Shown here: positions 3,881 through 34,251 of the stretch, piece by piece
How the letters are laid out: each line of letters begins with the position of its first letter
Position numbering within the stretch: the first letter of the stretch is position 1
Assembly (NCBI GenBank): GCA_002687255.1
Contig: NYZR01000013.1
Coordinates: 1 to 42,106, forward strand
Length of the DNA stretch: 42,106 nucleotides
Source of the DNA: Candidatus Pacearchaeota archaeon
GTDB taxonomy: Archaea; Nanobdellota; Nanobdellia; Pacearchaeales; GW2011-AR1
Direction of reading: 5' to 3'
Position numbers and translations under genes: made by a program
The notes under the pieces: model-generated
The model's database searches: none
What the model was told of the DNA's origin: nothing
Seen by the model: only the letters and a program-made list of their open reading frames with translations

Positions 3881-4495
3881 ATGAGAGCAGTTGGCACAGA
3901 AGCGCAGCTTGATCGGAGTAGAAAGCGGAATGGGATTATTATTAGTGTGTTGATGTTAGTGTTGTTGGTGGCTAGCTCTGTTGGGTTTGCTTTTCTTTCG
4001 AGTAATCATACGAGTGGTTCTCAGCAAGTTGCTGGGTCTGAGGGCGCTTATGAGGGTTCTGGTGTTGGGGGTTGGGTAGTTCCTGTTCTTGGTCGGGAAG
4101 TAAGGTTGACGTTTGGTCTTGAAGAAGTTGCTGAGATCCCTGTTGCTTTGACGACAGGTATAGAAGCGTATCAAGGGAAGACCTTGTATCTTGCGGTGGA
4201 GAATCCTGGGATCGAGGCAGAGTTGCGGAGCACTATTGGAGTCTTCACTGATCGGATTCAATTGGCTTGCTACGGGGAATGTGAGTTGGATTTGCCGGAG
4301 AAGGATTGTTCGGAGAACGTGATTGTCTGGACGGATGGCGTTGCCGAAGCAAGTTCGGCAGGCCCTCGCAGCTCGGACAAGGTGAACGCTGCTTCGGACG
4401 TTGGCGGGCAGGTGACGCAGGGAGAAGGGTGTGTGTTTATTGAAGGAGATTTAAGGGCTGTTGATGCTTTTCTTTATAAGGTGTTTGGTTACTAA
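3881..4495 (+). CDS. membrane-anchored hypothetical protein (possible class III/pilin-like signal KRNG-IIISVLMLVLLV) carrying an in-frame repeat insertion
   Basis: 204-aa ORF with a TATA at -25, an N-terminal TM segment and a Cys-containing ectodomain. Paralog of 4565..5209. Confidence 0.6.
   Translation: MRAVGTEAQLDRSRKRNGIIISVLMLVLLVASSVGFAFLSSNHTSGSQQVAGSEGAYEGSGVGGWVVPVLGREVRLTFGLEEVAEIPVALTTGIEAYQGKTLYLAVENPGIEAELRSTIGVFTDRIQLACYGECELDLPEKDCSENVIVWTDGVAEASSAGPRSSDKVNAASDVGGQVTQGEGCVFIEGDLRAVDAFLYKVFGY
4343..4399 (+). repeat. structured 57-nt repeat, copy E1 (in frame, 19 codons)
   Basis: GCCGAAGCAAGTTCGGCAGGCCCTCGCAGCTCGGACAAGGTGAACGCTGCTTCGGAC. Near-identical to 36926..36982, and its core is related to 27934..27998 and 12286..12320. 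Confidence 0.7.
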
Positions 4496-4564: not shown

Positions 4565-5209
4565 ATGGCGGCTAGAAAGAAGAAAGAAAAACCATTGTTG
4601 GCTAAAGAGACCAAACACATCTTGATCGGTCTTGCTGTTTTGGCGGTGTTGTTTTTGATTTTGACGTCGGTGTTTGGCAAGTTGGGGACGTTTGAGTATG
4701 AGGGTATGACGTTTGTTCAAGAGAAGTTTGGACAGTTGGATGTGTTCCGGTATACGTATTTTTATGAGGGGATTGAAGGAGATATTCTCCAGTATAACAT
4801 GTTCCTGCGGGTTGACCCTAGGACGAATGAGGTTCCGGTGACGGGCGAGATCGAGCTGCCGGCGAAGAGTCGGCAGATGTATGTGAGTATTGATACTACA
4901 GGGATGGCTCAGTGTGAGTTGAGTGCTGTAGGGATTTCTAGTTTGTCGGCGTTCTTGACGAATAATCAGTATCCTGTGAAGGGGGCGACGCCGTTTGAGG
5001 CAGAGGCGGAGTTGAGAGATATTCCTTTTGCTGACTGCCAGAGCCATCCGGAGAATGCTGTTTTCGTTGTGAAGACTGGTGATGAGACGAAGGTGGAGAA
5101 GCAAGGGAATTTCTGTTGGGTGTTGCAGGCTGCGGATTGTGAGATTGTTGAGGTAGTGGAGAAGTTTGAGGTTGAAACTATTATTCAGGCTAGGGCGAGA
5201 GAGGCTTAG
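4565..5209 (+). CDS. membrane-anchored hypothetical protein (paralog of 3881..4495)
   Basis: 214-aa ORF with a TATA-like AGATTTAAGA about 25 nt upstream, an N-terminal TM segment (ILIGLAVLAVLFLILTSVF) and conserved Cys spacing shared with the neighbour. Confidence 0.6.
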   Translation: MAARKKKEKPLLAKETKHILIGLAVLAVLFLILTSVFGKLGTFEYEGMTFVQEKFGQLDVFRYTYFYEGIEGDILQYNMFLRVDPRTNEVPVTGEIELPAKSRQMYVSIDTTGMAQCELSAVGISSLSAFLTNNQYPVKGATPFEAEAELRDIPFADCQSHPENAVFVVKTGDETKVEKQGNFCWVLQAADCEIVEVVEKFEVETIIQARAREA

Positions 5210-5210
5210 T

Positions 5211-5745
5211 CTAAATAAATTGTAAGAGGCCACTTAGCATTTTTATCTTCATTTTTATTCCCCTCACGACGGGGTTCTTTCTTGTATGATGTTCAGTTTC
5301 TACAAGGATTGCATCAATTCCTTTGTCTCTCGCTGATTTGTAGTCCCAGAAGTAATTATCACCAACCATTAACGCTTTGCTCTTTGGTATATTTCTTTTC
5401 TTGAGAATTTTTAGGATAAGATCTCCTTTGGCCTCGTGCAGAGTTTGAGTTGCATGCACCTCGTCAAAGAGGTCTTTGAGGTTGAATAGTTTGACTTTCT
5501 CATTCAGCACTTCTTGAGCCTCCCTTGGAGGGTGTGGGTGAGTTGAGAGGATGACAGTTAGTATGCCTTTCCTTCTTATCTTCCTTAATGTTGAAATTGT
5601 TGTTGGGGTTAATGTGAAGTGTTTGTTATGCTCCTTATGGCCTCCTGGAAGTTGATAGACTCACCAGGCTCCTTCTTTGTGTTTTGTCTTCTTAGGATAC
5701 CAAATTGTTCCATCACCGTCGAAGAAGATTATTTTCTTTTTTCAT
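5211..5745 (-). pseudogene. HAD-superfamily phosphatase, disrupted (start out of frame in an A6 run plus an in-frame TGA)
   Basis: A single frame reads KKKIIFFDGDGTIWYPKKTKHKEGAW-TGA-VYQLPGG...ILTVILSTH...MVGDNYFWDYKSARDKGIDAILV, with HAD motifs I-IV. The ATG at 5745 is one nt out of frame with it. Confidence 0.55.
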
Positions 5746-14286: not shown

Positions 14287-14359
14287 TGGGGCTGCCCGGA
14301 TTTGAACCGGGGTCGGCAAGTCCCAAACCTGCAATCATACCAGACTAGACCACAGCCCC
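14287..14359 (-). tRNA. tRNA-Pro (anticodon UGG)
   Basis: GGGGCTG TG GTCT AGTCTGGTA TGAT T GCAGG TTTGGGA CTTGC CGAC CCCGG TTCAAAT CCGGG CAGCCCC A. Folds as a full cloverleaf of 73 nt, with no encoded CCA. Confidence 0.9.
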
Positions 14360-16265: not shown

Positions 16266-16601
16266 ATGATGAAATGGAAACAGACCCATGTGCACTTAGA
16301 TTCTGGGTGGACAGGTCGCTTCGCTGCTTATAGTAAAAGGAGGGTGTCTCTTGCTGAACCTGAGAGAACTCCTTCTTATTGGGATCTCCCTAGAGAAGAG
16401 GTGATTAGCCCAGAAGAGGCTTTATTACATCATTGTGAATCGATGGAAGAGGAGATATTCTCTAGAGGAGGTTTTCAGATTGTTACAGAGAATGGTTTGA
16501 GGCAAATGAGTAGATTAAATTCTGAAATATCTATGGAGAATGTTGAAGCTCTTTATTTATCTGAACTCCGCCCTCATCAAGCTTCTCCAGATACTCTTTG
16601 A
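16266..16601 (+). CDS. hypothetical protein (111 aa)
   Basis: ATG lies about 25 nt downstream of GGTTTATAAATG. Its last ~20 codons lie antisense to the relic copy of the regulator's 3' end. Confidence 0.4.
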   Translation: MMKWKQTHVHLDSGWTGRFAAYSKRRVSLAEPERTPSYWDLPREEVISPEEALLHHCESMEEEIFSRGGFQIVTENGLRQMSRLNSEISMENVEALYLSELRPHQASPDTL

Positions 16602-16620
16602 TTCTGCTGACGGTTTGCGG
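16573..16620 (-). repeat. displaced copy (R1) of the 3' coding end of the wHTH regulator gene
   Basis: 40/48 identical to 17582..17629. On the minus strand it encodes PQTVSRIKEYLEKLDE, against PQTVSRIKEYLGKLDE in the intact gene. 7 of the 8 differences are synonymous. Confidence 0.7.
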
Positions 16621-16656
16621 GAAAGTGTTAAATAGTGTGGACGGCACTCTCCCTTC

Positions 16657-17091
16657 ATGGGCGGTGTTCAAGAGAAAGAAGATTCTGCGATCTTCTCCTT
16701 GAGACCCAGGGTAAGTGATATCGAAAATGGTGTCGCCTTCTTGGACTTTTTTAAGAATAGATATGACAACCCTATCGAGACTTTTAATTTTTGTAACTGT
16801 GTCGTTCTGGAAGCCCCGTATGTCCCACCAATTGAGTCTCCTGGAGATTATAGGATAAGATATTATGCAAACTTTGGTGGTGAAGACGAAGAGGGTTCAT
16901 CTTCGCTGGGGCTTATCCTTCCAGGAAGTTGCTTGATGCTAACTCTTGGGGACAGAGAGGGGTTTACCTTCCAGGATTCTTCCTTTAGTGGACGCCCTCC
17001 AGAGATATATTCTTTTCAGAGAGAGCACTTCAATCTTTTTGAGGTTTGTATTGAGGCAAGAAATGAGATCAATAGGATTTTAGAGAGTTAG
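16657..17091 (+). CDS. hypothetical protein (cassette gene 1)
   Basis: 144-aa ORF with its ATG 25 nt downstream of TTAAATAG. No family recognised. Confidence 0.5.
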   Translation: MGGVQEKEDSAIFSLRPRVSDIENGVAFLDFFKNRYDNPIETFNFCNCVVLEAPYVPPIESPGDYRIRYYANFGGEDEEGSSSLGLILPGSCLMLTLGDREGFTFQDSSFSGRPPEIYSFQREHFNLFEVCIEARNEINRILES

Positions 17092-17146
17092 TCTCCGAGA
17101 TTGGTGATGTATTCTTTGATTTTTCTAAAGGGAGTGCGATGACTAT

Positions 17147-17539
17147 TTACTGATTCTTAAGATCTTGTATCTCCTTGATCATTCCATCCAATCCGTGCTT
17201 CGCTACTTTCATTTCATCTATGTATCTTGCATCGTTTTCTTCTGCTATTCCTCTTGCGCTTTCTCTTGTAGAGAGCACCCAAATGTTTTTTGCTTCTGGA
17301 TCGCTTTGCCTGGTTTGCTTTATTGCTTCACCCACTAAGAGACTTGGGTTCTCTCCTGGTTTTTGGGGAAACTCTCCGTCTAGAAGATAGACTGTTGCTC
17401 TTGTGTCTTTTAGAAGTTCTTCAAATTCTTGCAAAGATCCAACTCCCCTATAGATTAGGGCTCTTCTACTCATTGCCTGCTCCACTGTGCCTCTAAGATC
17501 TTCAAGATCTTCGATGTGAATTACATCATAATGTTGCAT
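17147..17539 (-). CDS. stand-alone receiver (REC)-like domain protein (cassette gene 2)
   Basis: VIHIEDLEDL (acidic pocket), VYLLDGEFP (Asp57-equivalent) and IWVLSTRES (Thr/Ser position) fit a CheY-like fold. TTAAATAG lies about 25 nt upstream. Confidence 0.55.
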   Translation of the reverse strand: MQHYDVIHIEDLEDLRGTVEQAMSRRALIYRGVGSLQEFEELLKDTRATVYLLDGEFPQKPGENPSLLVGEAIKQTRQSDPEAKNIWVLSTRESARGIAEENDARYIDEMKVAKHGLDGMIKEIQDLKNQ

Positions 17540-17563
17540 CTTTCAGAGATTCTTGCAGCCTAT

Positions 17564-18025
17564 TTAAGAATTTGTGTGTTCTTCGTCGAGCTTCCCAAGA
17601 TACTCCTTGATTCTGCTGACAGTTTGAGGCAGCAAGAAGTTTTCTATTTTGGTTTCGAACAATTCGGAGAGGGGAGCGAATTCTGCTATTCGGTATTGGT
17701 TGTTGTGTTTGTCTACTAACATGGAGTCTCGGAGTCTTTTCAGCTGTCTTCTGATGTTGGATTCGGCTAGTCCTTTTTCGTCCAATGATTGTTCTTTTCG
17801 TTGGGTTTGGACTTGGTCACGGATTTGGAAGGAGGTGAGCCAGGTTTTGTTTTTTCTTGCTGCTTCTAAGACGTGGAGGATGTCGACCATGATGTCTCGT
17901 GAGTCTCCTGGTTGGAGGAGGCCTAATGATAAGCAGATTTTTCTCATAAGGTCTCTTGGCTGAGTGTCGTAGGGTTTTTCGTAGCGGCGGAGGGTGAGTT
18001 CGCCGAGGGGGGTTTCTTTTACCAT
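17564..18025 (-). CDS. archaeal wHTH transcription regulator (COG1318-like)
   Basis: LTLRRYEKPYD...ICLSLGLLQPGDSRDIMVDILHVL...SNIRRQLKRLRDSMLV is typical of a conserved archaeal HTH family. Confidence 0.65.
   Translation of the reverse strand: MVKETPLGELTLRRYEKPYDTQPRDLMRKICLSLGLLQPGDSRDIMVDILHVLEAARKNKTWLTSFQIRDQVQTQRKEQSLDEKGLAESNIRRQLKRLRDSMLVDKHNNQYRIAEFAPLSELFETKIENFLLPQTVSRIKEYLGKLDEEHTNS
17582..17629 (-). repeat. intact-gene copy (R2) of the duplicated regulator 3' end
   Basis: Partner of 16573..16620, and part of CDS 17564..18025. Confidence 0.7.
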
Positions 18026-18435: not shown

Positions 18436-19857
18436 TTATAAAAAGAGAAAGATCCACTTGACCATGAGGGCTGCTACTAACAAGAGGATGATCCAGGTTG
18501 ACCAGGCGAAGGCTTTTCGGCCGATTTTGTCGGAGCCTGTTAGGGCTGCGATGGTGAGGTAGAAGAAACGGCCGCCGTCAAAGATGCCTACAGGCAACAT
18601 GTTCACTAGGGCTACGGAGATGCAGATTAGGACAGTCCACCAGAGGAAGTTGTAGATGAACCAGCCGAAGTTTCCGAGTTCTGAAGTGTAGTAGACTTGT
18701 GGGTTTTTGATGAGGGTTCCGAGGTTGTAGACTTTGCCCATGAGGGAATCTCGGTTTTGAGGGATGGAGCCGATGCCGAGGAAAGCTACCCCTTGTCGGT
18801 CTGCTAATGTGAGAGATGTCGTGGTGATTTCGGCTTCGGTGGTTTGTGCGTCCTTAATGTAGGCTGTTCTGACAAGCACTGTTTGTCCGGGTTGGACGTG
18901 GTCACGGAGGGTGTGTTGGAGTTCTTCTAGAGAGGTGATCTCGTGATCGTCGATGTGTGTTATCGCCCCTGCGAGTTTGGCGTTAAAGGCAGGGGTGTCT
19001 GAGAAAGCTTCTATCTGTTCGATGCCTTGTTCCTGAGCTGCTTGGAAGAGTTGTGGAGAGGTGTAGTAGATTTCTTGTTCGAAGGTTATCGGTATGAGTT
19101 CTATCTCTTGATTGTGGAATTGTTGCGAGGTGAAGTTGAAGGCGGGGCCTGCTACCTGAGATTGTGCTGGCTGGATTGCAGAGACGGCGTAGGTGCTGAA
19201 GAGCACGCCGGCTGGTGTGAAGAATGCTGAGAAGAAGAGAAACATGATGATGGCGAAGAGTATTGTAGTCAAGACGTTGGCGAACGTGCCGGCTGCGAGG
19301 ATCGCCATTTGTGGCATCTTGGGAAGTTTATTCATGGCTTTTTCATCAGGCTCGACGAAGGCGGCGAGGAAGGGGCCGAGAAAGCCGAAGCCTGTGGAGT
19401 GGACTCTTAATGAGTTGAGTCGGGCGAAAATTCCGTGGGCGAATTCGTGAGGGATGGCTATGATTGCTATAATTAGGATCCAATACGTAAATGGAAAACT
19501 GGGGAGGAAGGAGATGTTGAACAGCTCTGGGAGGTAGGGGATGAGAGGGAGGAGGACGGGGACTTTGATCGCTGCGGCTGCTATCGGGGAAGTGAGGTAG
19601 ACCCAAGAGAATTGCAGGAGGAAGTAGATCATGGCCGCCATGAGGATGAATCCTGAGAGAATTACGAGGTATTGCGCTGGTTTGAGCCAGCTTGCGTGTT
19701 TTTTTGCGAACTCATCTATTCTTTTTACGCCCCATTGCGTTCGGTAGAGGTAGAGGAGGCCTTGTCTCTGCAAACGGGAGCGTTTGGCGTAGAGGAAGCC
19801 GACTACTAAGAGTGTGAATGCTGCTAAAAAGATTAGGTCGTAGATTAGGAAGCTCAT
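18436..19857 (-). CDS. site-2 protease (M50 family) with an inserted PDZ-like region
   Basis: HEFAHG (HExxH) lies in a TM segment, and the second motif is NMLPVGIFDGGRF. The protein is polytopic. Confidence 0.85.
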   Translation of the reverse strand: MSFLIYDLIFLAAFTLLVVGFLYAKRSRLQRQGLLYLYRTQWGVKRIDEFAKKHASWLKPAQYLVILSGFILMAAMIYFLLQFSWVYLTSPIAAAAIKVPVLLPLIPYLPELFNISFLPSFPFTYWILIIAIIAIPHEFAHGIFARLNSLRVHSTGFGFLGPFLAAFVEPDEKAMNKLPKMPQMAILAAGTFANVLTTILFAIIMFLFFSAFFTPAGVLFSTYAVSAIQPAQSQVAGPAFNFTSQQFHNQEIELIPITFEQEIYYTSPQLFQAAQEQGIEQIEAFSDTPAFNAKLAGAITHIDDHEITSLEELQHTLRDHVQPGQTVLVRTAYIKDAQTTEAEITTTSLTLADRQGVAFLGIGSIPQNRDSLMGKVYNLGTLIKNPQVYYTSELGNFGWFIYNFLWWTVLICISVALVNMLPVGIFDGGRFFYLTIAALTGSDKIGRKAFAWSTWIILLLVAALMVKWIFLFL

Positions 19858-19940
19858 TCGTTGAGTAGTAAAGGGGGGTTTTTAAGAGTTGTTGGAGGGC
19901 TAAGACATGGTTGTAAGAAAAAAGAAGTTCATAAACCTGT

Positions 19941-20681
19941 CTAATTTTTTTGCGGAGCTTCGCTTCTTTCGGAAGCTCGCAAACCTCCAAAGACAAAGCC
20001 GAAGTCGTAGCCGTCGCTCCTGCCGTAGCCATCGACACGCAACTGGCGGAAGCCCGTGTCGGCACTCAGCCTGACAACCCGGAGGAGCGTCTCTTGTGGA
20101 ATGTCGAAGCCCCCTACATGCACACCGTTGGTGTATTGTTCATCGCTTGCGAGTTCCTTTAAATTTAATGCGGTGCCTTTGGTATGTTCGAGAATATTTG
20201 CGAGTCCTTCGCTAGCGAATTTCCCTGCCTCTTGGATCCCTCTTGTGAAGGAGTCATATTCTGCGAAGCCGAAGTCTTGTTCTCCGAGGTAGATGTGTCC
20301 GTTGCTAAAAGGGATTTTTTCTGCTTGTTCGAGCTTTTTCTTGAATTCTGCTTCGCTTCGGACGTTGACAGCCACACCCTGTGGAGTCCTGGCGATTCGT
20401 GCAAGTTGGAGAGTCCCTGGGTTGAGGATTTTTTCTTGTGCTGACTTGATATCGTATGCCATCGCTTGTATTTGCTCTGAGGAAGTAAGAGGTTCAAAGG
20501 TTACGTCTGGTTGTTTTGCAGAGTGCCAGTAATGCTTCTGCATGTTTGCTTCGTTGGGATCGAGTGTTTCTGGTCCGAAGAGTGTGATGTCTCTTTTTTG
20601 TCCGTTGATTTCTATTTCTGGGAGGAGGTGAATATCTGGGAGCGCTGGTCTTTCTTCTGCTGTTCTCATTGCATATGCCAT
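19941..20681 (-). CDS. hypothetical protein (246 aa)
   Basis: ORF with TATTTAAAC about 25 nt upstream of its ATG. No family recognised. Confidence 0.55.
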   Translation of the reverse strand: MAYAMRTAEERPALPDIHLLPEIEINGQKRDITLFGPETLDPNEANMQKHYWHSAKQPDVTFEPLTSSEQIQAMAYDIKSAQEKILNPGTLQLARIARTPQGVAVNVRSEAEFKKKLEQAEKIPFSNGHIYLGEQDFGFAEYDSFTRGIQEAGKFASEGLANILEHTKGTALNLKELASDEQYTNGVHVGGFDIPQETLLRVVRLSADTGFRQLRVDGYGRSDGYDFGFVFGGLRASERSEAPQKN

Positions 20682-20789
20682 TGTTTCCTTTGCTCTCTGA
20701 GGTATTTAAACTTTTCTATTTGTTGTCCTTTCTAAGTTGTGACATTTTCTGATCGGAAGACTTAAATACTTTCTGTCTTACTTTCTTAC

Positions 20790-21047
20790 ATGGATGTGGA
20801 GTTTACTCGATTGTCCTCGAAAGGACAAGTGGTTATTCCTCGGAAGATTCGGGAGTCGTTGCACTGGGAAGTGGGCACGCCGTTTCGGGTGATGAAGGAA
20901 GGTGATGCAGTGATGATTGAGAAAATTGAGTTGGGAAGGAAGTCGTGGGATGAGGTGGCTGCGCCGTTTAGGAAAGCTGCTGAGGAAGCCGAGTTTACCC
21001 AAGAGGATTTATCACAGCTCATTCGTGATGTGCGTCGAAAGAAATGA
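20790..21047 (+). CDS. vapB: AbrB/SpoVT-type antitoxin
   Basis: MDVEFTRLSSKGQVVIPRKIRESLHWEVGTPFRV is a SpoVT/AbrB swapped hairpin. Its stop overlaps the PIN gene start as ATGA. Confidence 0.8.
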   Translation: MDVEFTRLSSKGQVVIPRKIRESLHWEVGTPFRVMKEGDAVMIEKIELGRKSWDEVAAPFRKAAEEAEFTQEDLSQLIRDVRRKK

Positions 21048-21460
21048 GAGTTGTGTTTGACACGAATGTCTGGCTTTCGGCGTTGTTTTGGAAGGGTGAG
21101 GCTGCTTCCTTGGTGAGATTGGCTGAACGGGGAAGAGTCGGAGTGTTCGTGAGTGAAGATTTACTTGCTGGGTTGGTTGAGGTGTTGCAGAAGGAGGCGA
21201 AGTTTCAGCAATTCTTAGGTGAGAGAAAGTTGGAGATTGAAGGGGTTGTTCGGGCGGTGCTTGATCTTGCCGATCTTGTGGATGTTCGAAGGAGGGTTTG
21301 TGTTGTTGAGGATGATCCCGATGATGACCGTGTGCTTGAGGTTGCTGTTGCTTCGGGGGCGAAGTATGTTGTTTCGTATGATCGACACTTGCTTTCTCTT
21401 GAGAAGTTTGATGGGATTGAGATGGTTCATCCAAAGGCATTTTTGGAGAGGTTATCTTAG
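21044..21460 (+). CDS. vapC: PIN-domain toxin
   Basis: MRVVFDTNVWLSAL...DDPDDDRVLEVAVASGAKYVVSYDRHLL shows the PIN acidic residues (TIGR00305-like). Confidence 0.8.
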   Translation: MRVVFDTNVWLSALFWKGEAASLVRLAERGRVGVFVSEDLLAGLVEVLQKEAKFQQFLGERKLEIEGVVRAVLDLADLVDVRRRVCVVEDDPDDDRVLEVAVASGAKYVVSYDRHLLSLEKFDGIEMVHPKAFLERLS

Positions 21461-21477
21461 AGAGATTTCATGAGAGA

Positions 21478-21538
21478 GTTATTCATTACACTATTTCTTC
21501 TTCAGAGGTCTGAAAGATTTGCCTTGGCAGCCCTTGCA
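21478..21538 (-). repeat. displaced copy (A) of the rpl40e 3' end (last 15 codons + stop + 14 nt)
   Basis: 55/61 identical to 22491..22551. It encodes CKGCQGKSFRPLKKK-stop, and all 5 coding differences are synonymous. Confidence 0.8.
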
Positions 21539-21545
21539 AAAACAA

Positions 21546-22454
21546 TTATCCATCGAGATACTTCTCAACAATATACTGCACGAATTCCCTCTCGTCTTTT
21601 TCGATTTGGTAGAAGTCGAGGGCGTTGTAGTAGGCTTCGAGGTCGGTGACTGGGATGTCTATTGGAGGATAGTTTTTTTTCCAGAGGATCCAGTTCATGA
21701 GGAGTCGTGAGAGGCGGGAGTTGCCATCGACGAAGGGCTGGAGTGAGATGAGTTTTGCGTGCACGAGTGCGGCGAGTTCGAGCGGATGAAGTTTTCTCTG
21801 GTGTTGTGCATACCATGACAGAAATTGATCGAGTTCTTTTTCGACGTGTTGCCATTTGGGCGGCAGGTAAATCGTGCCTGCGATCTTCACGTCCCTCTTG
21901 AGTTCACTCCTGAATTTTCCGGCGATGCTGTCGTCTATCCCTGCGAGCAGTGTTTTGTGTAATTTTTTGAGGAAGGCTTTTGTGAGAGGGCCTATGTATT
22001 GGGTGATCATGAGAAACCCTTTCTCGTGGTTTTCGAGTTCTTTGGCGATGCGTAGCGATTTCATTTCCTTCGGGATGATCCCTTCCTTCAGGATGAGGAA
22101 TGTCTGTCTTAATGTGACTGGAACGCCGGAGAGTTTGCTACTGTCGTAGGTGTATCTGATCATGAACTCTTCTTGCTTTTGTTCTCTCTCGGTCTTGCTG
22201 AGTTTTTTGAGTTCCTTCTGGTATGTTTCCTTTTTGTTCTCTATGTTTTTGACTATGTCGTCAGATAGGTAACGATGATTGTCTTTTTTGATGTCGTTGA
22301 GAAATTCTTCTTTCATTTTTTTTAGGTCTTCTTCTGGTGGAAGGGTCTTGCCTATATACTTGCTCTTTTGTCTGATGTTCTTCCCCTCCCTTATGTTGTG
22401 GACGAGGATCCAATAGGATTTCCCTTTAGTTGTTATCTTTCTTGCAAAAACCAT
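21546..22454 (-). CDS. Fic/DOC family protein with a degenerate active-site motif (QPFVDGNSRLSR)
   Basis: The Fic core is recognisable. The start is set at MVFARK (22454), 26 nt from the TATA GTTTAAATAT. The canonical HPFxDGNGRxxR has His replaced by Gln and GNGR replaced by GNSR. Confidence 0.8.
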   Translation of the reverse strand: MVFARKITTKGKSYWILVHNIREGKNIRQKSKYIGKTLPPEEDLKKMKEEFLNDIKKDNHRYLSDDIVKNIENKKETYQKELKKLSKTEREQKQEEFMIRYTYDSSKLSGVPVTLRQTFLILKEGIIPKEMKSLRIAKELENHEKGFLMITQYIGPLTKAFLKKLHKTLLAGIDDSIAGKFRSELKRDVKIAGTIYLPPKWQHVEKELDQFLSWYAQHQRKLHPLELAALVHAKLISLQPFVDGNSRLSRLLMNWILWKKNYPPIDIPVTDLEAYYNALDFYQIEKDEREFVQYIVEKYLDG

Positions 22455-22490
22455 GGGAAAGTTATTCACTACAGATATTTAAACCTTTTG

Positions 22491-22551
22491 GTTAGTCATT
22501 ACACTACTTCTTTTTCAGCGGCCTGAAAGATTTGCCTTGGCAGCCTTTGCA
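22491..22551 (-). repeat. intact-gene copy (B) of the duplicated rpl40e 3' end
   Basis: Partner of 21478..21538. The two copies are spaced 1013 nt apart. Confidence 0.8.
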
Positions 22552-22668
22552 GACGACTTTGCCGTTCAAGACCTTGAGGGAAGTGGTTCGGGTTTTTCGG
22601 CTGCACTTCTTGCAGACGAAGATGTTTTGGAAGAGTCGCTTTTGTGCTGCGGGGAGTTTTGTTGCCAT
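22504..22668 (-). CDS. rpl40e: ribosomal protein L40e
   Basis: A 54-aa ORF not in the supplied track: MATKLPAAQKRLFQNIFVCKKCSRKTRTTSLKVLNGKVVCKGCQGKSFRPLKKK, with a CxxC...CxxC pattern and a basic C-terminus. Confidence 0.85.
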   Translation of the reverse strand: MATKLPAAQKRLFQNIFVCKKCSRKTRTTSLKVLNGKVVCKGCQGKSFRPLKKK

Positions 22669-22670
22669 GT

Positions 22671-22928
22671 TTATTCCCAGCCTCCTCTTTCTACCATGGT
22701 GCCGATGATGCCGTAGCCGATGATGTCTTTCCAGCTGTCTTCTCTGCTTTCTTTATCGTCTATATCTTTTTCGATCATGTTCTTGAGGCGCTCTACTTTT
22801 TCTTGGAGTCTGATGAGGATGCCTTGCTTTCCGATGCTGGTGATGTTTCCGTCGCCGTAGCTTTTGTTTTTCTCCTTGAGGAGTTCTTTTACTTCGTCTG
22901 CGATGGCTTCCATTAGTGGTTCATTCAT
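22671..22928 (-). CDS. DUF1599-like small protein
   Basis: KNKSYGDGNITSIGKQGILIRLQEKVERLKNMI...EDSWKDIIGYGIIG fits the DUF1599 pattern (KN.dYG...G..iRl.dK..Rl...D...D...Y). Confidence 0.5.
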   Translation of the reverse strand: MNEPLMEAIADEVKELLKEKNKSYGDGNITSIGKQGILIRLQEKVERLKNMIEKDIDDKESREDSWKDIIGYGIIGTMVERGGWE

Positions 22929-31873: not shown

Positions 31874-32866
31874 ATGGCTGCTGAAAAGAAGTTAGGGGCT
31901 GCGCAGGTTGCGGCGTGGAAGACTGAGTCGGTGAAGAAGTTGGCGGAGCAGATGAAAGGAGCGAAGACGGTGTTGTTGGCCTCGATTAAGGGGTTGCCGA
32001 GCGGACAGTTCCATGCGATTAAGAAGCAGTTGCGAGGGAAGGCTGAGATTGCTGTGGGGAAGAAGTCTATTGTGTTGAGGGCGTTGGAAGCTACGGAGAA
32101 GGGGGCGCTGCAGAATTTGAAGAAGGAGATTGGAGCGGACATTGCGTTGTTGTTTTCTGATATGGATGCGTTTGCTTTGTCTGGGCTGTTGACCGAGAGT
32201 CAGAGTAAGATGAAGGCTAAGGTTGGAGATATTGCTCCGGAAGATCTGGTTATTGAGCCGGGGCCAACTGACATGTTGCCGGGGCCGGCGATTTCTGAAT
32301 TGGGTGCGGTTGGACTGCAGGTTGCTGTGGAGGATGGGAAGATTGCGATTAAAGCTGCGCATACGGTTGTTAAGGAAGGGGAAGAGATTTCTGCTAATGT
32401 TGCTGATGTTCTTGGGAAGTTGAATATTGAGCCAATGAAAGTTGGGTTCGGCCCTTTGGCTGCTTATGATGCTGAGGCTGATAAGGTGTATGTGGGTATT
32501 CGGATTGATAAGGAAGGTGCTTTGGAAGCTTTGCGAGAGGCTCTTGGGAAGGCTTTAGGGTTTGCTGTTTCTAAGAGGGTTATTAATTCTGGGACTGTGG
32601 GTTACTTTTTGGCGAAGGCGGAGGCTGGGGCTAAGGCGGTTGAGGGGAAGGTGCAGGAAGAGGGTTCTGAGTCTGAGGGGAAGGAAGATAGCTCTAGTGA
32701 ATCTTCTTCGGAAGGGAATAATGATAAGGAAGAACAACCGGGTAGTGAGGAAGGTGCTGGCGGGGATGATGGTGAGAATGGTGGGGATGCTGGTGCTGCT
32801 GAGGCTGATAAGGCTGAGGAGAAGAAGGAAGAATCAGATGAGGGGGGAAAGAAAGATGGCGATTAG
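31874..32866 (+). CDS. rpl10: ribosomal stalk protein P0 (uL10)
   Basis: AGGAGGT Shine-Dalgarno upstream. VAAWKTESVKKLAEQMKGAKTVLLASIKGLPSGQFHAIKKQLRGKA is typical. The acidic tail ends in KKDGD without the usual hydrophobic terminal motif. Confidence 0.9.
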   Translation: MAAEKKLGAAQVAAWKTESVKKLAEQMKGAKTVLLASIKGLPSGQFHAIKKQLRGKAEIAVGKKSIVLRALEATEKGALQNLKKEIGADIALLFSDMDAFALSGLLTESQSKMKAKVGDIAPEDLVIEPGPTDMLPGPAISELGAVGLQVAVEDGKIAIKAAHTVVKEGEEISANVADVLGKLNIEPMKVGFGPLAAYDAEADKVYVGIRIDKEGALEALREALGKALGFAVSKRVINSGTVGYFLAKAEAGAKAVEGKVQEEGSESEGKEDSSSESSSEGNNDKEEQPGSEEGAGGDDGENGGDAGAAEADKAEEKKEESDEGGKKDGD

Positions 32867-33110
32867 TTTTCCTGGGACTAACTATGGACGTTCTGGAAGA
32901 GTTCACCCAGATAGTATTGCTTCAGTTTCTTACCTCACCCTTATGGGGCTACAAGAGAGAGGCAAACTTAGAGAAGGCGTGATGAGGGCAGATGTTGATG
33001 GTTTCGTTGTTGGAGTGACCTATGATGGGAGAATCATTTTTGCTCCTGACGAATTTGAGTATGAATGTGATGGATTTGATGATACAACTACACAAGGGGG
33101 CTCTAGATAA
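32856..33110 (+). CDS. unknown small protein A inserted between rpl10 and rpl12
   Basis: 84 aa. The ATG overlaps the P0 stop (ATGGCGATTAG), with a GAGGGGGG Shine-Dalgarno upstream. No family recognised. Confidence 0.55.
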   Translation: MAISFPGTNYGRSGRVHPDSIASVSYLTLMGLQERGKLREGVMRADVDGFVVGVTYDGRIIFAPDEFEYECDGFDDTTTQGGSR

Positions 33111-33111
33111 A

Positions 33112-33537
33112 ATGAATGTGTTGGGCGGCTTGGTTGCTGCGGAGAGAATGTTGAGAAGGATTAAGGAAGGAGAAAGGAGGCGGGAGGGCAAGATTGTGGA
33201 ACTGGGTGATGGCTTCGACTTAAGCAGTCTTGAACAGGAGGATGTTGTGAGGTTTGGATACGAGGGTTGTGGGGGATTTAAGGTTGTAGAAAGTGCTGAT
33301 GAGAGTATGATTTCTATTTACGGCCCCCTGATCAATAGGCTCAATAGAGCCATAGAGATTAGATCCTGTGCGACCATTGAATCGAGAATCGATAAAACGT
33401 GCCTTATCATGCCTAGAGAGAACCATGAGATACTTAGGAGAGGGGATGAAGGATATGATGAAAAGGCACGAACCCTTGCAGGATTAGGTTTTAGGGAATT
33501 TTCAGATTACATCATTGAAAAGGAGGACGCTAAATAA
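33112..33537 (+). CDS. unknown protein B inserted between rpl10 and rpl12
   Basis: 141 aa. The ATG lies 1 nt after the stop of A, with an AGGGGG Shine-Dalgarno. Its stop overlaps the rpl12 ATG (TAATG). No family recognised. Confidence 0.6.
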   Translation: MNVLGGLVAAERMLRRIKEGERRREGKIVELGDGFDLSSLEQEDVVRFGYEGCGGFKVVESADESMISIYGPLINRLNRAIEIRSCATIESRIDKTCLIMPRENHEILRRGDEGYDEKARTLAGLGFREFSDYIIEKEDAK

Positions 33538-33842
33538 TGGAATATGTTTATGGTGCTTTGCTCTTGCATAAGCTTGGTCAGCCGGTCACTGCGGAGAGTT
33601 TGACGAAAGTCATTTCTGCTGCTGGTGCTGAAGTTGACGAGGCTAAAGTGAAGACACTGATTGCTAGCCTTGAAGGTGTGGACATCGGTGCTGAGCTTGA
33701 GAACGCAAGTGCGGTAGCCGCTGCTCCTGCAGCTGGCGGTGCTGGCGGAGATGCTGGTGCTGCTGAGGCCGATAAGGCTGAGGAGAAGAAGGAAGAAAAG
33801 GCTGAAGAAAGTGCTGCTGGATTAGGCGCCCTCTTCGGTTAA
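33537..33842 (+). CDS. rpl12: ribosomal stalk protein P1 (aL12)
   Basis: MEYVYGALLLHKLGQPVTAESLTKVISAAGAEVDEAKVKTLIASLEGVDI, followed by an acidic tail ending in AAGLGALFG. Confidence 0.9.
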   Translation: MEYVYGALLLHKLGQPVTAESLTKVISAAGAEVDEAKVKTLIASLEGVDIGAELENASAVAAAPAAGGAGGDAGAAEADKAEEKKEEKAEESAAGLGALFG

Positions 33843-33990: not shown

Positions 33991-34069
33991 GCAATGATGA
34001 ACATTGCGGCACCGAGGAGGCGAGCTCCTCGGACGCACAACATCTCGAACGCATGAACGATGTTGATGT
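33991..34069 (+). promoter_or_regulatory. hairpin-rich leader between the TATA (33959-33966) and tRNA-Ser
   Basis: Three consecutive stem-loops: GCAATG-ATGAA-CATTGC, CCGAGGAG-GCGAG-CTCCTCGG and CAACATC-(14 nt)-GATGTTG. Confidence 0.3.
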
Positions 34070-34152
34070 GCCGGCATTGGGCAGTGGCCGCCCGGCAGGC
34101 TTGAACCCTGCTTTCCATTACGGATATCTCGGTTCGATTCCGAGTGCCGGCG
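34070..34152 (+). tRNA. tRNA-Ser (anticodon UGA), class II with a long variable arm
   Basis: GCCGGCA TT GGGC AGTGGCC GCCC G GCAGG CTTGAAC CCTGC TTTCCATTACGGATAT CTCGG TTCGATT CCGAG TGCCGGC G. 83 nt. Confidence 0.9.
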
Positions 34153-34251
34153 TTCTATGGAAACCAAGGTTTCCCTTAGGAACCCTTCCTTTAAGAGACT
34201 AACAGTTTCCTTTGCTAACCTTCCTTTTAGTTAGTCCGCTACGCTTGGCGT

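Follow-up and report, generated by a model that had tools for sequence, protein, structure and literature searches.

The genomes of DPANN archaea are tiny, and few mobile elements can be recognized in them. In fungal mitochondria, mobile open reading frames (mORFs) are found in atp6 of Allomyces macrogynus (ORF360) and in atp6, atp9, cox2 and nad3 of Glomus sp.; each unit of about 1 kb supplies its host gene with a foreign C-terminal piece, and the native C-terminus ends up as an orphan some 1 kb further downstream (PMC3630166). The orphan matches the sister species, the differences are synonymous, and the ORF is a proven homing endonuclease (PMC3630166). Here, we analyzed a 42,106-nucleotide (nt) stretch of DNA (contig NYZR01000013.1, referred to below as the window) from a Candidatus Pacearchaeota archaeon, in which a cassette with a single Fic-family gene stands at the 3' end of a gene for a 54-amino-acid (aa) zinc-ribbon protein, probably rpl40e (eL40), between two copies of that end. 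The mORFs with a C-terminal duplication are the closest known parallel. Common to both are a gene core followed by an imported 3' end, a mobile ORF of about 1 kb and a native orphan end, and in both the orphan matches a close relative, the differences are synonymous and the acquisition is between lineages. The host of the Fic cassette is a marine DPANN archaeon, labeled Pacearchaeota, Woesearchaeota or Nanoarchaeota in the records.

The two direct copies are identical at 55 of 61 positions, lie 1013 nt apart from start to start and enclose one gene, which has a TATA box and matches the Pfam Fic family (3.6e-21), as a sequence-only reading of this DNA had described (coordinates in Table 1). A 23-mer from the repeat core occurs exactly twice in the window, where shuffled sequences lead one to expect none. 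On the minus strand, each copy encodes the peptide CKGCQGKSFRPLKKK followed by TAG, and the five coding differences between the copies (K three times, R and P) are all synonymous, again in agreement with that reading. It had also counted 14 nt of 3' flank as rpl40e sequence; this flank is 13 nt long and is the distal operator of the Fic promoter instead. The minus-strand order is aIF5A, an 85-aa phage-like gene, the 54-aa zinc-ribbon gene, Fic, the orphan stretch, a convergent vapC/mazE pair, a 246-aa gene and Peptidase_M50. Contigs 99.9-100% identical to the window, covering one or both junctions, come from at least six independent TARA, ENA and JGI assemblies. An assembly chimera is ruled out, and the arrangement is not an artefact, because independent contigs span the junctions. 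Exact-protein look-ups with L40e, Fic, VapC and aIF5A led to no other state than the filled arrangement, which is present in all near-identical contigs. In one of the loci fetched for comparison, which carry L-numbers here (L086, ERZ5402580), the orphan copy has T rather than C at the position equivalent to 21533; this is the state of the functional copy, so that one copy could have converted the other, or the population could be polymorphic at this position.

That the 54-aa protein is L40e, as proposed from the sequence, remains probable, with weak profile support and no family match: neither Pfam nor NCBIfam recognized the protein, and a profile of 24 orthologues matched archaeal eL40 chains in PDB weakly (E 0.014-0.8). 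The gene comes after aIF5A in 76 DPANN loci, and the C4 pattern and the basic tail (F/L)RPxKKK of the protein, FRPxKKK here, are conserved. The L40e homologue search yielded three proteins only.

Comparison with relatives showed that the Fic cassette is an insertion. It is part of an accessory island that separates rpl40e from the M50 protease gene, two genes that elsewhere lie side by side. In all 73 relatives that hold both genes, rpl40e is followed by Peptidase_M50, mostly with a gap of 0-80 nt, against 2647 nt in the window. The ancestral downstream neighbor of rpl40e is thus the M50 protease gene, and not vapC, which had been expected beside rpl40e at an empty site. Across 76 GTDB loci, no Fic gene after rpl40e and no second rpl40e end were found. 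The closest relatives found, L188 and L189 (aIF5A 98% identical in aa; 90.8% in nt over aIF5A-p85-rpl40e and about 85% elsewhere), have a different sequence directly after the rpl40e stop, with neither operator nor Fic; in L190-L192 the rpl40e stop and the M50 start are adjacent, and L193 has a 75-aa ORF at this place. The site is therefore variable, with all of L188-L193 lacking Fic after rpl40e, and an ancient, fixed arrangement is not what the relatives show. Downstream of rpl40e in L188 (7816-8175) there is an ORF of about 105 codons with no assigned family; a poly-C run puts its start out of frame, either through a homopolymer error, perhaps, or through a frameshift. This ORF is a different cargo at the same hot spot.

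The two copies of the gene end do not stand at the same distance from L188. The orphan copy matches the L188 rpl40e end at 48 of 49 positions and the functional copy at 44 of 48; the four differences of the latter are all synonymous, and its divergence is in line with the 7-13% of the adjoining genes. All three ends encode the same peptide, and more distant relatives have other tails. As a null, we took a repeat that is born identical, by target-site or tandem duplication, and whose orphan copy then decays neutrally, which predicts 37.5% synonymous changes. Synonymous and non-synonymous differences numbered 5 and 0 in the rpl40e repeat, 7 and 1 in a second repeat of the window at the end of a 153-aa gene, 4 and 0 in the Dph5-like gene of L166 and 5 and 3 in aIF6 of L125, together 21 against 4 over four independent coding repeats (P=2.4e-6). 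As judged from these substitutions, the two copies are diverged alleles of the same junction that come from different lineages, each as a functional gene end, which is what the sequence-only reading had proposed.

A duplication in situ, of the target site or as a local tandem, with later divergence and perhaps a subsequent allelic replacement of the functional gene, would fit the repeats flanking the insert exactly, and their identities (81-98%, and 100% with a wider-spaced L121 pair) can be read as an age series. The synonymous bias argues against it, as do the orphan copy being nearly unchanged relative to L188 while the functional copy carries the synonymous differences, the variable repeat lengths, and the lack of terminal inverted repeats and of a transposase at the cassette. 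To rescue it, an extra replacement would be needed at each of the four loci, with its boundary inside the 1-kb cassette. For the coding cases a duplication in situ is largely refuted, and as a general explanation we regard it as extremely improbable. Two lineages having contributed the copies agrees with a separate observation: the similarity between the window and L188 is mosaic, 78-98% by segment with 95.6% in the P1 gene, and DNA exchange between the two lineages is therefore shown independently. The allele pattern is also compatible with a reciprocal crossover between repeat positions 39 and 45, in which case the incoming arm would be of the L188 type at 48 of 48 positions; one site decides this placement.

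The inserted gene belongs to a very large family. At E<=1e-10, 616 homologues were found; the best 120 of them are about 60-67% identical, those with names are nearly all from DPANN metagenome-assembled genomes, and many of the best 120 listed are on contigs of 1.0-1.4 kb. We fetched 80 further metagenome loci and several genome contexts for comparison; hardly any of the 76 distinct Fic genes share their neighbors. Upstream sequence was long enough in 71 distinct loci, and every one of these has a direct repeat of 11-13 nt on either side of the TTTAAATA box, with a spacing of 29-31 nt and with the proximal operator about 6 nt ahead of ATGGT. The two operator copies are identical or nearly so within most loci, and the motif varies between loci (for example GTAGTACATAAC, GTAGCCCATAAC and GTAGTGACAACC). 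Conservation among loci begins at the distal operator and stops at the Fic stop codon and its T-run, and upstream of the distal operator the sequence is different everywhere. Therefore, promoter and ORF move as one unit of about 1 kb, and the description of Fic as an inserted single-gene cassette with its own promoter is supported. The operator pair is the signature expected of a lineage-specific DNA-binding repressor, most simply the N-terminal domain of Fic itself; it is probably autoregulatory and co-evolving with the Fic protein. In L091 (4016-4927) and L114 (1372-2283), Fic genes adjoin the same TrmB-IleRS pair in opposite orientations and with different operator types, which suggests that the same insertion site was used independently.

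Flanking repeats recur at other Fic loci. For the 53 distinct Fic genes whose flanks reach 200 nt or more in either direction, we searched for similarity between the 400 nt upstream of the start codon and the stretch from 60 nt before to 400 nt after the Fic stop, using mismatched locus pairs and reverse complements as controls (365 comparisons). A flanking direct repeat scoring above all 365 controls was present at nine of the 53 genes, representing eight independent loci. Repeat length is 40-84 nt, except for 27 nt in L102; the copies of a pair agree at 81-98% of positions and lie at a spacing of 961-1204 nt. What they duplicate differs from locus to locus. The 3' end of the upstream gene is copied in the window (rpl40e) and in L098/L102 (Dph2), and that of a convergent downstream gene in L125 (aIF6) and L166 (a Dph5-like methylase). 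In L161 the repeat is the promoter and first 15 codons of the downstream gene (aldehyde dehydrogenase), in L095 and L127 it is intergenic or promoter DNA, and in L138 and L164 it is the Fic promoter module itself. The recurrence suspected from the second case in the window thus extends to these eight loci, and the phenomenon is more general than first read, with a large cassette family and a recurrent scar, and also less site-specific. Array-like arrangements were seen in two loci. In L127, an intergenic sequence of about 70 nt present three times (3883-3956, 4911-4984 and 5623-5664) bounds Fic and a DUF433/PIN-like toxin-antitoxin pair. In L108 (2329-2376 and 3212-3259), the cassette beside Fic has two genes and is flanked by an orphan DUF86/HEPN gene end of 48 nt; its first protein shares the Fic N-terminal domain. 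In a survey of 1 Mb of DPANN loci for repeats of 28-200 nt, 19 direct and no inverted repeats were found; the direct repeats outside the window are not gene-end cassettes but intergenic motifs or paralogues.

The sequence-only reading had taken the repeats for the attachment (att) sites of a site-specific integration event. This part was not borne out: the repeats are unrelated at every locus, range from 27 to about 100 nt in length and have no core sequence, fixed length or hairpin in common. DNA folds of the junction regions gave z values of -0.4 to +0.5, with no hairpin or attC-like structure, and Rfam reported only a tRNA. No terminal inverted repeats occur at the cassette, and among about 50 ORFs of the window scanned with Pfam, to which our recombinase statements refer throughout, there was no match to an integrase, transposase, recombinase, Cas1 or reverse transcriptase. 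The insert had accordingly been described well as free of integrase, transposase and tRNA, and the search for a trans-acting recombinase or Cas1 that had been suggested gave no hit within this scope. A tyrosine or serine recombinase could still act in trans, with the repeats as attL and attR of a cis-mobilizable element (CIME) that has lost its integrase. It counts for this view that integrative elements classically leave direct repeats by which the 3' end of the target is restored, and that repeat lengths of 40-80 nt are typical of att sites. Against it stand the different repeat sequence and target type at each locus, the varying lengths with no shared core, the lack of a Pfam match in the insert as in the scanned ORFs, the absence of the Fic family from IMG/VR viral contigs, where none was found, and the two loci in which the repeat is the cassette's own promoter. 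We consider a recombinase acting in trans highly improbable.

The Fic protein itself offers no mobility enzyme. Its fold is clear from Pfam (PF02661), from a PDB profile match to FICD (1.7e-26) and from an AlphaFold2 model (mean pLDDT 81) for which Foldseek returned FICD (3e-12, TM score 0.67-0.70); FICD is the best match by sequence and by structure. PADLOC gave a SoFic match (1.7e-25), and the catalytic His of the motif HxFx(D/E)GNGRxxR is missing: the family motif is QPFVDGNSRLSR, the Gln at position 239 is invariant in 29 aligned family members and aligns with the His of FICD, and in the PDB profile QPFVDGNSR of the Fic protein aligns to HPFIDGNGR of FICD. The inhibitory Glu is also absent, with SSKLSG standing where a TVAIEG-type inhibitory motif is expected. 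Because Gln replaces the catalytic His and the inhibitory motif is replaced as well, the family is unlikely to be a canonical AMP transferase, despite the SoFic and FICD matches. It is strongly conserved though both residues are gone. In the model, the N-terminal domain is a basic three-stranded beta-sheet, which is common to the first protein of another cassette; because of this basic domain and the lineage-specific operators, the Fic protein probably binds DNA. Searches of Pfam, NCBIfam, PADLOC, PHROGs and PDB returned the Fic fold only and no nuclease domain. Fic is probably an autoregulated defense- or toxin-like factor rather than a mobility enzyme.

We read the locus as a mobile cassette with a two-allele recombination scar, and to this general reading we assign a probability of about 0.85. 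For the narrower proposal that integration is driven by homology and needs no recombinase, the odds are even; how the cassette integrates, whether a circle forms on the way, which lineage was the donor and what Fic does are matters that we infer. Under the proposal, the unit, consisting of the operator-TATA-operator promoter, the 302-aa ORF and the T-run and placed directly after the rpl40e stop codon, would travel between related DPANN lineages on a molecule that brings along a short piece of what it used to adjoin. Homologous recombination by the host inside this short piece would insert the cassette and duplicate the piece, with no need for a dedicated integrase, either through a Campbell ('ends-in') event, for which the molecule would be circular or permuted, or through equivalent break repair from a donor allele. 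One copy would complete rpl40e and the other would stay as an orphan, so that the 61-nt repeat would be the scar joining two alleles of one junction, namely the last 48 nt of rpl40e and the first Fic operator. An earlier resident Fic at the same stop-operator junction would have been displaced and lost. Such a displacement by the present Fic is probable because the hybrid operator, leader and ATG after the orphan resemble the 5' edge of an older Fic unit. This single hybrid operator with leader and ATG after Fic (21469-21490) is comparable to the remnants after the Fic stop in L138 (4705-4758) and L164 (2016-2075), where a second promoter module with leader and ATG is found.

The homology-driven proposal would also account for the features of the other loci. 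Targets would be arbitrary and yet always be gene ends or promoters, the label being what the cassette had stood beside and the host gene being kept intact by selection; repeats would vary in length and carry synonymous differences from birth; and most loci would be free of repeats, since none remain after a double crossover in longer flanks. Several points weigh on the other side. Arms of 27-84 nt with an identity of 84-98% are short for homologous recombination, the route to new sites is not accounted for, though nearly all contexts differ, and only about 16% of the loci carry repeats. For the likeness between the orphan and L188, 48 nt are available (roughly P=0.05). All three downstream promoter remnants end no more than about 10 nt from the ATG, which random decay does not predict. 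Neither an empty site nor an excised circle or hybrid junction was found in the same population, and the recombinase search covers the 42-kb window, so that a trans-acting enzyme encoded elsewhere in the genome is possible.

The arrangement could also have come about by one-ended homologous and illegitimate joining of a linear donor, or by an unequal crossover of two diverged rpl40e-Fic chromosomes, either of which would give a tandem, with the second Fic then deleted and no circle involved. The orphan has the same junction of rpl40e stop and operator, followed by leader and ATG, like the 5' edge of a second Fic unit, the promoter modules of L138 and L164 stand complete and directly after the Fic stop, and distant Fic paralogues lie nearby in five loci; orphan arrays from sequential displacement are known for type VI secretion system (T6SS) effector-immunity genes (PMC5361080). 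However, illegitimate joins are expected at random, yet the eight independent loci enclose Fic alone at the spacing given above, as seen with a search window of ±400-600-nt flanks that is biased to short spacing, and at least two further deletions would be needed in the window. Homology-facilitated illegitimate recombination usually deletes recipient DNA and does not duplicate it, which counts against a linear donor. Joining or crossover of this kind is, in our view, unlikely.

The mitochondrial parallel raises a further explanation, a homing-like spread. Here the unoccupied allele would be cleaved by a nuclease, either the cassette's own or a trans-acting one; through repair from the occupied allele it would receive the cassette and the foreign gene end, and the native end would be pushed downstream. 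The geometry is that of Allomyces atp6 and of Glomus atp6, atp9, cox2 and nad3 (PMC3630166). The near-identity of the orphan with L188 would be expected, and the modeled N-terminal domain together with the operators makes DNA binding by Fic probable. On the other hand, the cassette has a Fic fold and no nuclease domain, cargo of another kind is found in the second case of the window and in cassettes with toxin-antitoxin or HEPN genes, the targets have no common sequence, and the unoccupied L188 site has no operator-like motif. We regard homing as quite improbable and keep to a mobile cassette with a scar from two alleles.

Extended beyond this locus, the same scheme would give DPANN archaea a recombinase-free, 'homology-addressed' way of moving cassettes, an extension that we find doubtful. 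Fic, toxin-antitoxin pairs, HEPN pairs and other genes would travel as expression cassettes of about 1 kb, each with a short copy of the end or promoter of a conserved neighboring gene as its address label; recombination inside the label would let them hop from one lineage to another and now and then to a new site. A DNA-binding Fic pseudo-enzyme may help this hopping, with its operator pair sometimes forming the repeat itself.

The second case in the window, which had also been noticed from the sequence, is real. The repeat is 47-48 nt long with a spacing of 1009 nt and lies at the 3' end of the conserved 153-aa gene, of which homologues with 55-75% identity occur at 36 DPANN loci. Pfam, NCBIfam, PADLOC and PHROGs gave no match to the 130-aa and 144-aa proteins of the insert, and the relatives that we fetched have no homologue of either. 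Among relatives, the gap between the 153-aa gene and Spt5 ranges from -17 to 4042 nt, and this site is therefore another insertion hot spot.

Table 1. Features of the Fic locus and of the second repeat-flanked insert (positions in the window).
Feature	Position	Strand	Remarks
aIF5A	23317-22928	-	
54-aa zinc-ribbon gene, probably rpl40e (eL40)	22504-22668	-	last 15 codons and stop in right copy
Right (functional) repeat copy	22491-22551	-	rpl40e codons 40-54 plus TAG at 22504-22551
Fic promoter	22455-22503	-	distal operator, TATA box, proximal operator, 6-nt leader
Distal Fic operator	22491-22503	-	TGTAATGACTAAC; part of right repeat copy; starts directly after rpl40e stop
TATA box	22476-22483	-	TTTAAATA; Fic promoter
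Proximal operator	22461-22473	-	TGTAGTGAATAAC; Fic promoter
Fic-family ORF, 302 aa	21546-22454	-	T-run after stop; FICD-like fold; catalytic His replaced by Gln
Left (orphan) repeat copy	21478-21538	-	rpl40e' codons 40-54 at 21494-21538; TAG at 21491-21493
Single operator-like (hybrid) element	21478-21490	-	TGTAATGAATAAC; part of left repeat copy
Leader-plus-ATG remnant	21469-21477	-	TCTCTC ATG; resembles Fic leader and start TTTCCC ATG; 19/22 identical
Rest of accessory island	19858-21460		spans rpl40e side to M50 protease gene
vapC, PIN_3	21044-21460	+	Pfam
mazE/abrB antitoxin	20790-21047	+	Pfam
246-aa gene, unknown	19941-20681	-	
Peptidase_M50 gene	18436-19857	-	gene calls with Pfam; ancestral downstream neighbor of rpl40e
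Second case, conserved 153-aa core gene	17564-18025	-	3' part 17583-17629 is the functional copy
Second case, insert	16621-17582		130-aa ORF 17147-17539 (-), 144-aa ORF 16657-17091 (+)
Second case, orphan 3' end	16531-16620	-	PQTVSRIKEYLEKLDE at 16574-16620, then a different tail to stop at 16531-16533

Other features of the window were noted in passing. A third direct repeat of 55 nt, 95% identical (32779-32833 and 33743-33797), consists of a P1 acidic-tail segment copied into the P0 tail, and a 171-aa ORF of unknown family (33022-33537) lies between P0 and P1. L188 has neither the copy in its P0 tail nor the 171-aa ORF, and its P1 is 95.6% identical against about 85% for the neighbors. Simple paralogy of P0 and P1 explains the repeat only in part, the segment being absent from the P0 of L188; for the same reason the P0 segment is a recent copy, and the repeat may be another recombination scar. 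ARAGORN predicted a tRNA-Ser (tga) at 34069-34153, a stretch that is 97.7% identical in L188; Rfam at its gathering threshold gave only a tRNA-Pro at 14287-14359. The 85-aa gene wedged between aIF5A and rpl40e (22671-22928, minus strand; phrog_1485 match 2e-16, weak DUF1599) was found here and in the sister lineage L188/L189 only. It is absent from the other 76 DPANN loci, in which the gap between aIF5A and rpl40e is mostly a few to a few hundred nt and could in some cases fit a small gene.

The locus and the eight independent loci parallel to it provide a testable footprint of one route by which accessory and defense genes may be exchanged in DPANN archaea, with single-gene cassettes moving together with a short piece of a conserved neighbor, after which a second copy of the gene end, derived from another lineage, stays in place. 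With this locus, a very large DPANN Fic family without the catalytic histidine is defined as well, and the promoter with its two co-varying operators is a ready-made system for the study of archaeal autoregulation. In practice, orphan gene ends can mislead gene calling and distort single-gene phylogenies, and they can mislead assembly because many contigs break at them.

Several known systems resemble the locus in part. As in integrative elements and CIMEs, the insert lies between direct repeats, of which one restores the end of the target gene, and as in CIMEs the insert itself is without a recombinase. Unlike integrative elements, the eight independent Fic loci have unrelated repeats with no att core in common, no integrase was found by Pfam in the insert, which holds Fic only, or beside it in the window, the targets differ per locus, the element is one gene long and its repeat is partly its own operator. 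With the T6SS effector-immunity loci (PMC5361080), contact-dependent inhibition loci and Rhs orphan arrays it shares an incoming module that recombines in a short upstream stretch and an old end orphaned downstream, and polymorphic toxin loci likewise carry toxin- or defense-type cargo; there, however, the displaced piece is a different toxin tip with its immunity gene, whereas at the Fic locus it is the same housekeeping peptide. Integron cassettes, including those of archaeal integrons (PMC9668308), are likewise single-gene units of about 1 kb running from promoter to terminator, and arrays separated by repeats occur in L127 and L108. Unlike them, the Fic cassette has its own promoter and repeats that copy the local target, and we found no attC hairpin (z about 0) at the junctions and no IntI or other integrase among the scanned ORFs of the window. 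Because an att core or integrase, replacement of a toxin tip, and attC with IntI were not found, the locus is set apart from integrative elements, toxin arrays and integrons.

A transposon or insertion sequence does not fit either, given the variable lengths, the synonymous-biased divergence and the lack of terminal inverted repeats and transposase at the cassette. A diversity-generating retroelement was also rejected: the scanned window ORFs have no reverse transcriptase match in Pfam, and the mismatches, which from functional to orphan copy read A>G, G>A, G>T, A>G, G>A and C>A, are not adenine-specific. As for the cargo, Fic proteins of the SoFic and FICD type, which are AMP transferases and single-gene anti-phage defenses, share the fold; the family described here differs in its invariant Gln for His, the absent inhibitory Glu, the extra N-terminal beta-sheet domain and the two-operator promoter. 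The mORFs encode LAGLIDADG or GIY-YIG homing endonucleases for which cleavage was shown biochemically, whereas the archaeal cassettes carry Fic without a nuclease domain, no LAGLIDADG, GIY-YIG or HNH endonuclease being found with the databases searched for Fic, or unrelated small genes. The Fic cassettes further differ in residing on an archaeal chromosome, in having repeats also at 5' ends, promoters and intergenic DNA, and in not being fused in frame to the host gene. Together, our data suggest that the locus is a prokaryotic counterpart, apparently free of nuclease and recombinase, of the target-end-duplicating mobile ORFs known as 'C-terminal duplication' elements in fungal mitochondria.

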